A DNA stretch of 64,000 nt from Cyclobacteriaceae bacterium (GCA_965217295.1 CBDCHR010000007.1:8258-72257); one strand, 5' to 3'; numbered from the stretch's first letter, positions 2,112 through 8,917 are shown. Notes: generated by a model not told the origin, from the sequence alone. Program-made: numbers and translations.

Positions 2112-4886
2112 TCACGACACACCGATCGCCGACATAAATTCGAGAGTGACTTCGACAGTCATGATCTGTTTAGGCTGAACACTGACTCTTAGCTGCTGCC
2201 CGTCCACCGGCAACGCCCGTAGCAGACGCTCGTCCAGATTAACCTGTTTGGCTGAGGTTAGGCGTCGGTCAAATTTTAAAACGCCGGTTGTTTCATACCC
2301 CGAGCTGTTGAACAGACGAACTATGTAACCACCTTCCTCATTTTCTGATCGCTTAACGGCGGTGACGACCAGATCCGATCCTTCTACCTTTAGGAAAGAC
2401 TTCTGCAAGGGAAGATCCGCACTTCTACGTTGCAGCGATTCGTACACCACCTTCCCTGGTCTACGGTCAACGGAGCGTACGCCGGTAACAAACTGTTGAT
2501 GCTCGAGCCATAACTGACCCGGGTGAAGTTCCTCTGCCATAAAGGGGCGGAGGGCATAACGAAATTCGAGGTCCCCGAGGAGCTGTCCGCCATCATCGTC
2601 GTCTTTTAGAACTTCTTTGCGCGTACTTCTGAATAACGTGAGGGCGATCGTCCGTGCCTCGTCGTCGAAAAGGGCGCACTCGTAAAGACCGCGGCTGTAC
2701 ACCGCAAGGCCTTTGTCCCCGTCGCTCAAATAGATAATTCCGTTATGGGGCACGACTTCTCGCGCCTTTTCCAGGTAGGTCGAGTAGTCGCGGCGCTCGA
2801 TCGGTCGCTCGACGAGGTCAAAGGGGGTGCTCGTGTAAAACCGGTCAGTGCTTATACCTGTCGGGAACAGTAGCCGCAACCGGTGGTCGCGCGCCGTGTT
2901 TCGTATGACGGTCCGGCAGCGGATCACGGGATCGCCTTGTCTGAGATCGAGAAAAGTCGTGATCGGCAGCGCCACGCGCTCGCTGCCACGCTGTGTTTCG
3001 GACGGGTCGATTTCGGAGGGAACATGAATGCTTGAGCGGATGCACAAGCGAGTGAGAAAACGCCCATCATGAACCACCGAAACCGTGGCGGGCGCGCCCA
3101 GACTGGTCACGACCTCATTGGTCACAGGCGCGACATGGTTCCAGCCTTCGCCGACATCGGCCTCGTCCTCGAACCACAGCAAGTTTTCGAAGGAGTGGCC
3201 GCTCTTGTGATCCATCAGCGTCACGGTTCCACTTGGCTGAACGGCCAGCCGAACGCGCCCGTTATCCCAGACATCGGTTCGAACTCTGAGAGATCCAGGA
3301 TAGCGAACAGGGGCCGAGAACTTTTCCGTGTGGTATTCCCTCGTAGCCGGGGCTTCGATCTTATAAGGTTCTAATTGGTAGGTTGTGTAGCCTAAAGATG
3401 GCACCTGAGCATGGAGCGCAATTCGATAACGGTCGACAAAGTCAGTATAAGGAATATCTCGATGGGGTCGCCACCTCCTAACACTGTCCTTGCATACTCC
3501 CAACAGCTGATAAGGCACCTCATTGTGCTCTATATCGTAAAGGCGAAAGGACGTGCCGCCGAACTGTGGCATGGTGACGGCTGCATCCGTTGCTGTAGGC
3601 AAGGCGATCTCGATGTCGAGAATTCCATCAATAGGGCTCTGGGATGGATTGAAGATGACAACCGCCTGCCGCTCTCCCAGTTCTTCTGTTTCTAGGTGGT
3701 TAACAACGTAGGAAAGTTCCTCGTGAATCATCTGTTCGCTGATGAGCCGGGATTGATCAAACCGGTACAACATGTCTTTGTGGACCTGGTCGATGGAGCA
3801 GCCACAGATGGAGTCGTGCGGGTGGTTCTGCAGGAGAAACTCCCAGGCCTTATTCAAAAAGCTCGCTGGGTAGGGCCGTCCTTCCCAGGCCGTGAACACG
3901 CCCCAGGGTTCCGCCCATTTCTCCAGCAACGTTTCGCATAGGTGGTTGTTCTGCTTCAGATGCACGCGCGACGAGAGTACATTCGCCAAGAGCCAGTTGT
4001 TCGCGCCGCGGTATCCAGGCGACCTCTGTTCGCCACGGTAGACCCGGAGATCGCTGACCTTACTGCGCAGCTCCTCGAGGTAGCACTCGAGCGTGCTGTG
4101 AACGAACTCGACTCCAAGGTCGGCTTCATTCAACGTTTTGAGCATCCGAGGAAGCTGAGGCTCGATTTCAACATGGTCCACGCCGTCCAAGCTCAGCAAA
4201 AGATTGGTTGTCGCGCGCTCCTTTTTATAAGCCAGCATCTCCTTTGCCCGCCCCACGAGTTCCTCACGCTCATACTGAAAATCGCGGTCAGAAAATGGCC
4301 AGCGCAGGAAGAAGAAAAAATCTCCATAGGAGCGGTCTTCATCCAGCTTTAGGGTGAGAACCTGGCTACCGTCGGCACCTTCCCACAAAACTTCAGACGG
4401 ATCCGCATCTCCATAAAAACCTCGGAAGAGCACCGCGTTGTCAAACCCAAACCCGCGCAGGATTTGGGGAAGCTGGCTGTTGTGGCCAAAAATGTCGGTG
4501 ATGTAGCCCGACCTCATCGGCTCAACGCCCCAGGACCTCGCCATCCGTGAGCCTTTGAGCAGGTTGCGGATCAGCGACTCCCCGCTGACAAGAAACTCGT
4601 CGGGCATCACGTACCAGGGACCAATCGATATTCTCCCTTGCCCGATCAGCCTTTTTAACCGCTCACGCTGTTCCGGACGAATCTCTAAGTAATCTTCCAA
4701 AATGATGGTCTGGCCGTCCAGAGTAAAGTGGCGGTAATCAGGATCCTGTTCCAGGTTGTCAAGCAGCTCGTCGATCAGGTACACGAGCCGAACCCGGAAT
4801 CCCTGGAAGTCCTGATACCACTCCCGGTCCCAATGGGTATGCGATACAACGTAAACCTTCTTGATCCGGCGCTCAATTGTCTTCAT
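2112..4886 (-). CDS. GH38 alpha-mannosidase (MngB-like subgroup)
   Basis: SHTHWDREWY zinc motif, GPWYVMPDEFL, YITDIFGH nucleophile region, NHPHDSICGCS. Confidence 0.93.
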   Translation of the reverse strand: MKTIERRIKKVYVVSHTHWDREWYQDFQGFRVRLVYLIDELLDNLEQDPDYRHFTLDGQTIILEDYLEIRPEQRERLKRLIGQGRISIGPWYVMPDEFLVSGESLIRNLLKGSRMARSWGVEPMRSGYITDIFGHNSQLPQILRGFGFDNAVLFRGFYGDADPSEVLWEGADGSQVLTLKLDEDRSYGDFFFFLRWPFSDRDFQYEREELVGRAKEMLAYKKERATTNLLLSLDGVDHVEIEPQLPRMLKTLNEADLGVEFVHSTLECYLEELRSKVSDLRVYRGEQRSPGYRGANNWLLANVLSSRVHLKQNNHLCETLLEKWAEPWGVFTAWEGRPYPASFLNKAWEFLLQNHPHDSICGCSIDQVHKDMLYRFDQSRLISEQMIHEELSYVVNHLETEELGERQAVVIFNPSQSPIDGILDIEIALPTATDAAVTMPQFGGTSFRLYDIEHNEVPYQLLGVCKDSVRRWRPHRDIPYTDFVDRYRIALHAQVPSLGYTTYQLEPYKIEAPATREYHTEKFSAPVRYPGSLRVRTDVWDNGRVRLAVQPSGTVTLMDHKSGHSFENLLWFEDEADVGEGWNHVAPVTNEVVTSLGAPATVSVVHDGRFLTRLCIRSSIHVPSEIDPSETQRGSERVALPITTFLDLRQGDPVIRCRTVIRNTARDHRLRLLFPTGISTDRFYTSTPFDLVERPIERRDYSTYLEKAREVVPHNGIIYLSDGDKGLAVYSRGLYECALFDDEARTIALTLFRSTRKEVLKDDDDGGQLLGDLEFRYALRPFMAEELHPGQLWLEHQQFVTGVRSVDRRPGKVVYESLQRRSADLPLQKSFLKVEGSDLVVTAVKRSENEEGGYIVRLFNSSGYETTGVLKFDRRLTSAKQVNLDERLLRALPVDGQQLRVSVQPKQIMTVEVTLEFMSAIGVS

Positions 4887-4929
4887 CGGTAGCTAATCCT
4901 CCAGTATATGAGGGCGCTCGGGCGTTATT

Positions 4930-5030
4930 GGTTCGTCCACCAAGTGCGTCACAAACCTTTGACGCAGTGGTTTACGTTGCTCACGCAGAAACCCGGTTGC
5001 AAAGATTACGCGAAATTTAATGGACGAACC
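4930..5030. mobile_element. Candidate 101-bp MITE
   Basis: Terminal inverted repeats GGTTCGTCCA (4930-4939) and TGGACGAACC (5021-5030), flanked by ATT on both sides; internal TGCGTCA/TGACGCA hairpin. Confidence 0.5.
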
Positions 5031-7755: not shown

Positions 7756-7831
7756 CTCTGCGCGGATTCCTTTGCTGACTTACATACGAGGAATGGTTGC
7801 TTGGTCACTGGCTTGCCCGTTTGGGCCACGG

Positions 7832-8917
7832 TCAGACCACCTCGAGTTCGTCTTTGCCGGGTAAAGGCAGGAATGGTCTGTGTGGTTCGGTCTGGTACCA
7901 GAAACCAACGGAAGCAATGTCATCCTGTAAGGGCAAGTATCGCTTGAACCCAGGACGCCAGCCCAAAGCCTGAATCGTGACGCGGAGATTTTCCTCAAAG
8001 CGCACGGGGTCCATGACGTGCCAGCGGTACATGCCGAAGCGCTGGTTGGCCTGGTAGAGGCCATCCGGTTTGACCACCTGGTGCATGCCGAGAAAGGGGG
8101 TGGAGTAGGTGCCGTACTGCCCCTCGGGTTGCTCCCAGTTCCAGGCTCCTCCGAAGTAGTCTTCCGTGCCAGTGCCGCAGATGGTGGGAAACTCGTCATC
8201 GCCGTCCAGATAAAACTTGACCTCCCCCTCGCCCCACCAGCGGTTGCTGTTAACCTGCCAGGCCATGTAGGTGCCGACGTAGTGACCGTGCCCTTCGACG
8301 CCGTCGAGAATGGTGTAAACGTCTTTGTACTTCATCGGGTTAGTACGACGCCACTGGGCGTGGAGGTAGGCCACATCCTCCGGCACCTCCGTCAAGGCGT
8401 AGTCGATCTGGTAGTAGATGAAGCCGTCCTCTTCGGCAATATTTTCCAGAACGAAGGTCGCCGAACCCCGGAAGGGCATGGGCCAGTAGCTGTTGAGCCC
8501 TCCTTTAGGATTGACGACAATGGGCAGAGAATTCACCCGTACAGGTTCGCCCCAGCCGTTGCAGAAAAAATCGCCCAGGGGCACCTGAATGGAGGGTTCC
8601 TCTTCGCCGTCCCAGTACACCTTCAGGATCAGCGAGCGCCAGGCGGAGGGGAGTGTAGCGCACCAGATGTGCTGAACCGTTCCAGGGCCCGTGATGTCCG
8701 CCAGCACGACACTGGCTCTTGCTTTGACGATCAGATAGGGCGATATCTTCCAGCCCTGTCCCAGATCACCGGCGGGGGCCGCGCCCGGCCCTTCGGTGGC
8801 CATCCCGCCCTTGCCCTTCTCGCCCGTCGGGTTTTCTGCGCTGATGGACCGCGTTTTCGCGTGCGACAGCTTGACTAATCCTGCTAAACTCGAGTCGAAA
8901 CCTATACGCTCGGTCAT
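7832..8917 (-). CDS. GH172 / DUF2961 family glycoside hydrolase
   Basis: SISAENPTGEKGKGG, WWGEGEVKFY, GTGTEDYFGGAW, YRWHVMDP are typical of DUF2961. Confidence 0.9.
   Translation of the reverse strand: MTERIGFDSSLAGLVKLSHAKTRSISAENPTGEKGKGGMATEGPGAAPAGDLGQGWKISPYLIVKARASVVLADITGPGTVQHIWCATLPSAWRSLILKVYWDGEEEPSIQVPLGDFFCNGWGEPVRVNSLPIVVNPKGGLNSYWPMPFRGSATFVLENIAEEDGFIYYQIDYALTEVPEDVAYLHAQWRRTNPMKYKDVYTILDGVEGHGHYVGTYMAWQVNSNRWWGEGEVKFYLDGDDEFPTICGTGTEDYFGGAWNWEQPEGQYGTYSTPFLGMHQVVKPDGLYQANQRFGMYRWHVMDPVRFEENLRVTIQALGWRPGFKRYLPLQDDIASVGFWYQTEPHRPFLPLPGKDELEVV

Follow-up and report, generated by a model that had tools for sequence, protein, structure and literature searches.

If genes for two glycoside hydrolase family 38 (GH38) enzymes and one family 172 (GH172) enzyme stand in a row on a transmissible element, which sugar chains do they serve, and is the set at work in its present host? 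The question is raised by a stretch of 64,000 nucleotides (nt) from a Cyclobacteriaceae bacterium, called the window below, which comprises bases 8258-72257 of a 93.6-kb contig (57.6% GC); the host genome is 6.7 Mb in size and 99.3% complete, with a main contig of 6.26 Mb at 53.6% GC. The original prediction for this region was a scavenging unit for either arabinomannan or mannosylglycerate, and comparative evidence supports the former half of this proposal but not the latter. With modest confidence, the 16-kb two-operon unit at 2112-17765 is read here as a module for the cytoplasmic exo-digestion and catabolism of imported arabinomannan-type oligosaccharides, by which short chains of alpha-D-arabinofuranose (alpha-D-Araf) and alpha-mannose would be taken up and fully dismantled. 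The best-known natural source of such chains is the arabinomannan and lipoarabinomannan (LAM)-type glycans of mycobacteria and other Corynebacteriales. The features of the unit are as follows (aa, amino acids; E, expectation value).

2112-4886, minus strand: GH38a, candidate cytoplasmic alpha-mannosidase, 924 aa (Glyco_hydro_38N E 7e-42, plus the middle and both C-terminal domains)
5038-7755, minus strand: GH38b, candidate cytoplasmic alpha-mannosidase, 905 aa (Glyco_hydro_38N E 3e-34, plus the same domains as GH38a)
7832-8917, minus strand: GH172 (DUF2961), candidate exo-alpha-D-arabinofuranosidase of ExoMA1 type, 361 aa (DUF2961 E 2e-95)
9200-10474, minus strand: ROK-family regulator with an N-terminal winged helix, 424 aa (ROK E 8e-41; HTH_24/MarR_2 at residues 34-81)
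10489-10502, no strand: perfect 14-nt palindrome in the divergent promoter region, candidate ROK operator
10591-11445, plus strand: class I aldolase of DhnA/LsrF type, first gene of the divergent operon (DeoC/LacD family E 1e-33)
11418-12599, plus strand: Gfo/Idh/MocA (GFO) oxidoreductase, whose open reading frame (ORF) overlaps that of the aldolase
12668-13837, plus strand: long PfkB-family sugar kinase, 389 aa (family match)
13834-14391, plus strand: cupin of the YdaE/TsLI D-lyxose/D-mannose isomerase family, 185 aa (PDB 7NZO E 3e-69; 2Y0O E 3e-66)
14486-15817, plus strand: solute-binding protein (SBP_bac_1/8) with a signal peptide (family match)
15859-16845 and 16791-17765, plus strand: two ATP-binding cassette (ABC) permeases (BPD_transp_1)

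None of the eleven ORFs is interrupted or shortened in comparison with its homologues. The two GH38 genes, the GH172 gene and the upstream ROK gene, as named in the original prediction, are indeed present at the coordinates listed, as long, unbroken minus-strand ORFs; genome-wide, the only GH38 genes are GH38a and GH38b, and the only GH172 gene is the window copy. A 117-nt region parts the ROK-side operon from the divergent aldolase-to-permease operon. On the ROK side, the gaps of 282 nt (GH172/ROK), 76 nt (GH38b/GH172) and 151 nt (GH38a/GH38b) hold no terminator-like hairpin, and co-transcription of ROK, GH172, GH38b and GH38a is therefore plausible. The three enzymes had been predicted to be cytoplasmic for lack of signal peptides, and their N-termini agree: the catalytic motif of GH38a and GH38b begins in the first 20 residues and leaves no room for a signal peptide, and the N-terminus of the GH172 enzyme lacks any hydrophobic segment, so that none of the three has one. 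A binding-protein ABC importer adjoins them.

The likely substrate of the GH172 enzyme is suggested by its homology to a characterised protein. The double jelly-roll family PF11175 (DUF2961) covers it over the whole profile (positions 1-235 of 235, E 2e-95), and its residues 13-360 match PDB 8IC8 with 443 bits (E 6e-132). This structure is ExoMA1 of Microbacterium arabinogalactanolyticum, an exo-alpha-D-arabinofuranosidase without a signal peptide that works inside the cell, where it finishes imported arabino-oligosaccharides, and is specific for alpha-D-Araf; its Asn253 (Gly299 in the fructofuranosidase alphaFFase1) is held responsible for keeping out fructofuranosides, whose 1-hydroxymethyl group it would obstruct (PMC10509167). 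The acidic motifs WWGEG and GTGTEDYF of the window enzyme are identical in alignments to both 8IC8 and 7V1V, and its GGAWN aligns with the GGAWN of 8IC8, with Asn253 kept, and with AWG of 7V1V. The enzyme is a candidate ExoMA1-type exo-alpha-D-arabinofuranosidase, its activity being read from close homology. The earlier suggestion of a D-arabinofuranosidase gains from this match, from the kept Asn253 and from the genes for GH183 enzymes or FucI-like isomerases that neighbour its relatives.

These neighbours were surveyed around the 80 closest GH172 relatives in species genomes, which are 59-71% identical to the window enzyme and come from many phyla. A GH183/DUF4185 endo-D-arabinanase is encoded near four of them, all in Bacillota loci, and FGGY kinases are present in five loci. 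Five loci hold a FucI-like gene of the D-arabinose/L-fucose isomerase type (four close matches of 62-100% and one of 22%), the phyla represented including Bacteroidota, Chloroflexota and Acidobacteriota. Other recurrent neighbours are genes for LacI regulators and ABC transporters. Such neighbours are those that would be expected for a D-arabinose-releasing enzyme.

In loci L015, L041, L046 and L060, which span several phyla, a divergent FucI-like isomerase gene directly adjoins an ExoMA1-type GH172; the only Pfam matches of these four isomerase genes are to Fucose_iso_C, and are weak. In L060 the FucI-like gene is accompanied by the cupin, a GHMP kinase and a ribose-type ABC system. The FucI-like genes beside ExoMA1-type GH172s look like a second, different D-arabinose route. 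Additionally, four unrelated loci have a PhyH gene in the vicinity of GH172 (cluster 16), and in the window PhyH-type dioxygenases are encoded after the permeases, at 18510-24321, together with AraC regulators and a further GFO oxidoreductase.

GH38a and GH38b each carry all four GH38 Pfam domains and share 32% identity with one another. The HxHxD metal motif stands at residues 16 and 19, and the DxFG nucleophile motif at 131 and 133, in GH38a and GH38b respectively. The best solved relatives of GH38a are the bacterial GH38s 3LVT and 2WYH, and the best homologues of GH38b are Paenibacillus and Cohnella proteins (50-60% identity) and metagenome proteins (58-63%). Among 401 genomes of Paenibacillaceae, the family that holds Paenibacillus sacheonensis, 12 have a GH38b orthologue (51-60% identity), in 13 loci altogether, and in five of these loci a GH38a orthologue (54-58%) adjoins it. 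The pair therefore appears to form an independent unit.

Two of the 13 loci, in genomes G046 and G367, also have a GH172 gene directly downstream, and both genomes encode GH183 elsewhere. The locus of Paenibacillus G046 (contig C27) comes closest to the window: on one strand it encodes a solute-binding protein, two permeases, two GH38s, a GH172, three more proteins, and then aldolase, GFO oxidoreductase, PfkB kinase and cupin. Its GH172 (67%, Asn kept), aldolase (66%), GFO oxidoreductase (60%) and cupin (62%) are close to those of the window, and its GH38s are only 34% and 42% identical to the window GH38s, versus 51-60% for true orthologues. The set of solute-binding protein, permeases, GH38s, GH172 and downstream genes therefore seems to have been put together independently twice. 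The three further proteins between GH172 and aldolase in G046 (L127:2888-7503) are of 427 aa (weak DUF455 match), 285 aa and 736 aa (no family).

The aldolase, GFO oxidoreductase, PfkB kinase and cupin form a cassette at the head of the plus-strand operon. Isomerase, kinase, aldolase and oxidoreductase are thus encoded together, as a ketose-1-phosphate aldolase route would need. Among solved structures, the aldolase is related to LsrF, MJ0400 and archaeal fructose-bisphosphate aldolases (E about 1e-20), and the best relative of the GFO oxidoreductase is levoglucosan dehydrogenase 6A3F, a weak match. Cassette counterparts in Paenibacillaceae are considerably nearer for the aldolase (64-67% identity), GFO oxidoreductase (59-66%) and cupin (58-66%), and PfkB orthologues (43-50%) occur in 82 of the 401 genomes. 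In 20 loci found by a search with the PfkB kinase, the order aldolase-GFO-PfkB is kept in 18 and the cupin follows in 15; a DeoR regulator and a DUF4432 (mutarotase-like) protein are usually encoded with the cassette, and neither GH38 nor GH172 is present in the loci fetched by this search. A PfkB scan of metagenomes returned one distant locus and was uninformative.

Comparative analyses suggest that the cassette is linked to D-arabinan use. GH183 is present in 44 of the 401 Paenibacillaceae genomes, and a PfkB orthologue in 30 of these 44 versus 52 of the 357 GH183-negative genomes (odds ratio 12.6, Fisher p 2e-13, a value that overstates the association because related genomes are not independent samples). 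In six genomes (G044, G196, G279, G327, G042 and G204), a D-arabinan locus, GlcD/GlcF-like genes and the cassette follow one another on one strand. The D-arabinan locus consists of GH183, an ExoMA1-type GH172 (63-73%), a second GH172, an ABC transporter, a DUF6259 protein, a conserved 679-aa protein and a LacI regulator, and the cassette end reads aldolase-GFO-PfkB-cupin-DUF4432-DeoR (L207-L217, L012/L169). GlcD/GlcF also follows the cassette at another chromosomal site, and thus lies on either side of it in different arrangements. That this adjacency is merely a conserved chromosomal neighbourhood was considered: GlcD/GlcF travels with cta genes in six of seven loci, and this explanation is not fully rejected. 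However, next to the D-arabinan loci GlcD/GlcF lies on the opposite side of the cassette, which argues for a functional link. The adjacency of D-arabinan locus and GlcD/GlcF leads to the proposal that D-arabinose is burnt by the cassette, with dihydroxyacetone phosphate (DHAP) and a C2 unit as products.

Two further proteins are conserved in the Paenibacillaceae D-arabinan loci, namely the 679-aa protein (L013:3519-5558; homologues in L012, L017, L207, L209, L211, L213 and L216) and the DUF6259 protein (L002:6562-8787). Both are candidates for the missing beta-D-arabinofuranosidase or for a glycosidase of a new kind. Neither a Pfam family nor a related solved structure was found for the 679-aa protein.

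In the mechanism proposed, fragments released by other organisms would be imported by the binding protein and the two permeases. Terminal alpha-D-Araf would then be removed by the GH172 enzyme, by its homology to ExoMA1, and alpha-mannose by the two divergent GH38s, which clearly belong to that family and may act on different linkages or in different contexts. The cassette would isomerise the released sugar to a ketose, phosphorylate it and cleave it by class I aldol cleavage to DHAP and a short aldehyde, which the coupled oxidoreductase would handle. For D-arabinose, the route would run through D-ribulose and D-ribulose-1-phosphate to DHAP and glycolaldehyde. A FucI-type isomerase was not found in the host genome, and the cassette is therefore the only candidate D-arabinose route nearby. 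More broadly, it is tentatively proposed, with more doubt than confidence, that the cassette, often with DeoR, DUF4432 and GlcD/GlcF, constitutes a pathway, widespread but so far undescribed, by which D-arabinose released from actinobacterial cell walls is broken down via D-ribulose-1-phosphate to DHAP and glycolaldehyde/glycolate, and that the GH38 and GH172 unit is a mobile arabinomannan-specific front end to it. No description of the cassette was found in the literature on D-arabinose and glycolaldehyde or on GH183, and no literature joining GH172 with GH38 was found.

Several observations weigh against this account. The original prediction had made conservation of GH172 beside GH38 in relatives a check on itself, and the outcome is divided: the set recurs in the Paenibacillus locus found from the GH38 side, and no GH38 gene lies within 10 kb of any of the 80 closest GH172 relatives. 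The GH38 pair is likewise mostly without GH172 (5-6 of 13 loci), so that the trio of two GH38s and a GH172 is rare. In G367, where the order GH38-GH38-GH172 is present, the GH172 (L116:7486-8553, G367:C24) is 47% identical to the window enzyme and has Gly at the position of Asn253; its sugar specificity may be different, and the locus gives the account little backing. The cupin is very close to YdaE and the Thermofilum D-lyxose isomerase, which are characterised D-lyxose/D-mannose isomerases. D-Arabinose and D-lyxose differ at C3, and to our knowledge activity on D-arabinose has not been reported for these relatives. For a D-lyxose isomerase related to the cupin, the Km for D-lyxose is 74 mM (PMC8378251). 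Two Bacteroidota loci encode the cupin together with a FucI-like gene, and there the cupin is thus probably not the D-arabinose isomerase. Additionally, we know of no GFO-family enzyme that acts on glycolaldehyde. A sole candidate promoter of sigma-70 type in a Bacteroidota host, and a host genome that lacks GH183, GH76 and a MalK-type ATPase and has GH116 only below the cut-off, such that the module may be idle, count on the same side and are taken up below.

If the cupin acts on mannose, the GH38 pair, the transporter and the cassette could handle alpha-mannosides of any origin (bacterial, fungal or plant), with the GH172 as an accessory for some other furanoside. Mannose would be turned into fructose by the cupin, and the kinase and aldolase route would yield trioses. 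The membership of the cupin in the D-lyxose/D-mannose isomerase family fits such a module, as do the recurrence of the GH38a and GH38b pair without GH172 in Paenibacillaceae and the Gly at the arabinose-versus-fructose discriminating position of the G367 GH172. Similarly, in locus L115 homologues of the window transporter (solute-binding protein 31%, permeases 40-42% identical) precede the GH38b orthologue. However, mannose needs only an isomerase and a fructokinase, and the constant, translationally coupled aldolase-GFO pair and the GlcD/GlcF genes are left unexplained. The cassette tracks GH183 and adjoins D-arabinan loci without a recognisable mannosidase, and the window GH172 is of the ExoMA1 type with its Asn kept. 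A module for mannosides alone is regarded as unlikely, and the arabinomannan reading is preferred to it.

A second question is whether the arabinomannan module functions in the host in which it was found. The contig carries genes for a type IV coupling protein, ParB and ArdC, and the earlier claim of a conjugative element holds to the extent that, by these genes, it is conjugative or mobilisable. GC content varies along the window: the sugar island at 2-26 kb has about 54-57%, an AT-richer block at 32-40 kb has 46-51%, and the transfer/leading region at 42-64 kb has 58-65%; the sugar island differs in this respect from the transfer backbone, which has 61-65%. Fifteen genomes of the same genus yielded no GH172 orthologue, and across 400 genomes of the host phylum GH38b finds no match closer than 39% identity, compared with 51-60% in Paenibacillaceae. 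These data are consistent with a foreign origin of the unit, whose genes are Bacillota-like and which is carried by a conjugative plasmid. A megablast comparison of 2112-17765 with a plasmid collection gave no match.

Of the importer, the cluster encodes the binding protein and the two permeases but no ATPase, and an OB_MalK ATPase was not found in the 99.3%-complete genome, in which the window permeases are two of only four BPD_transp_1 matches. An orphan ABC ATPase of 337 aa with a TOBE_2 domain is encoded on the chromosome (G000:C8:1705457-1705660; L133:1486-2499); it matches the GlcV model over its full length, and no permease gene lies within the 3.2 kb examined around it. It is the only conceivable partner of the ATPase-less plasmid importer, which it might serve. 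As for other glycosidases, GH183 gave no match in the host genome (the same search was positive in three Paenibacillaceae genomes), GH76 was not found, and GH116, the family of the exo-beta-D-arabinofuranosidase of D-arabinan loci, is represented by a sub-threshold chromosomal DUF608 match alone (23.5 bits versus a cut-off of 26.3). The host is thus without endo-enzymes and would at best scavenge fragments released by other organisms.

With regard to regulation, the ROK protein joins a sugar-kinase-like ROK domain to an N-terminal winged helix, an architecture of repressor type, and the NCBIfam equivalogs NagC and Mlc all score far below their cut-offs. The palindrome at 10489-10502 is the only exact copy in the window and overlaps the -10 hexamer of a sigma-70-like promoter facing the ROK gene; no second copy, with up to three mismatches, was found near GH172. 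The ROK protein would probably repress both operons from this shared promoter region. For the prediction of co-transcription under ROK the picture is mixed: the common strand and the hairpin-free gaps make co-transcription plausible, there is one candidate operator, and ROK is not conserved in related loci, being missing from the Paenibacillus versions of the module.

The genes could also be silent cargo, intact but inactive, that arrived from a Bacillota-like donor with foreign promoters and without a shared ATPase or endo-enzymes. This concerns the present state only and is compatible with the arabinomannan reading. The missing OB_MalK ATPase and the paucity of BPD_transp_1 matches would agree with silence, as would the lack of GH183, GH76 and FucI (with GH116 only below its cut-off), the absence of a GH172 orthologue from the same-genus genomes and the single candidate promoter of sigma-70 type. 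Against it stand the eleven intact ORFs, the orphan chromosomal TOBE ATPase that might serve the importer, and the local ROK regulator, which, since it is missing in the Paenibacillus versions, suggests adaptation after transfer. Silence is judged improbable.

The other half of the original prediction, a unit for breaking down mannosylglycerate or some other mannosylated compatible solute in which a GH38 would play the part of Escherichia coli MngB, is very improbable and was rejected. Among the NCBIfam models MngB alone matches the GH38s, and does so over the full length, but with 439 and 475 bits they remain far short of the 1138 that the equivalog model requires. MngB uses a 6-phosphate supplied by a phosphotransferase system (PTS), whereas the uptake genes here are of ABC type and no PTS or glycerate kinase gene was found among the annotated genes of 1-31 kb. 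Neither the GH172 nor the cassette would be explained.

Breakdown of D-arabinan and LAM by environmental and gut bacteria was opened up only in 2023. On the arabinomannan reading, the locus and its Paenibacillus counterparts provide a testable gene set for finishing the mannose-bearing parts of LAM and arabinomannan, for burning the released D-arabinose and for spreading this ability between bacteria: two GH38s are paired with an ExoMA1-type GH172, the cassette tracks GH183 across Paenibacillaceae, and in another phylum the package is carried by a conjugative plasmid. For the analysis of LAM, enzymes able to remove D-arabinose and mannose from mycobacterial glycans would also be useful tools.

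Overall, the window unit is a variation on known D-arabinan/LAM utilisation loci, and its most interesting element is the uncharacterised cassette. The nearest likeness is to the D-arabinan/LAM locus of M. arabinogalactanolyticum, in which a signal-less ExoMA1-type GH172 likewise stands beside a binding-protein ABC importer and sugar-catabolic genes; that locus comprises ExoMA1 (GH172), ExoMA2 (GH116), EndoMA1/2 (GH183), the importer and a putative isomerase and kinase, the families of which are not named in the supplements of the paper (PMC10509167). The two share the logic of oligosaccharide import followed by cytoplasmic exo-enzymes. Unlike Microbacterium, the whole genome of the present host has no GH183 and no GH116 above the cut-off, two GH38s are added, the aldolase-GFO-PfkB-cupin cassette replaces a simple isomerase and kinase, and the unit is on a conjugative plasmid of a Bacteroidota host. 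The D-arabinan polysaccharide utilisation locus of Dysgonomonas gadei (GH172s Dg67, Dg71 and Dg79, and GH183) is from the same phylum as the host, and the dodecameric Dg67/ExoMA1 clade cleaves alpha-1,5- and alpha-1,3-linked D-Araf (PMC10115798; bioRxiv 10.64898/2026.08.13.744632). However, the D. gadei enzymes are periplasmic and depend on TonB-dependent uptake, whereas the window enzyme is predicted to be cytoplasmic and fed by an ABC system of Gram-positive style.

The GH38s have the same domain order and catalytic motifs as the bacterial cytoplasmic GH38s, namely SpGH38 of Streptococcus pyogenes (2WYH), the Enterococcus faecalis enzyme (3LVT/5KBP) and MngB (E 1e-95 to 1e-114). They differ in that they are not MngB equivalogs and form a conserved pair of 32%-identical paralogues. 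For the cassette, the closest parallels in logic are two pathways of other enzymes. E. coli degrades D-arabinose with the L-fucose enzymes FucI, FucK and FucA, together with AldA and GlcDEF, and the sulfo-EMP (Embden-Meyerhof-Parnas) pathway consists of YihS, YihV, YihT and YihU. With these the cassette would share an aldose isomerase, a ketose-1-phosphate kinase, an aldolase that yields DHAP and a short aldehyde, and a dedicated oxidoreductase, but every one of its enzymes is from another family than in the E. coli routes (cupin, PfkB, DhnA-type class I aldolase and GFO). The glycolate-oxidase-like genes adjacent to many cassette loci extend the parallel to GlcDEF of E. coli.

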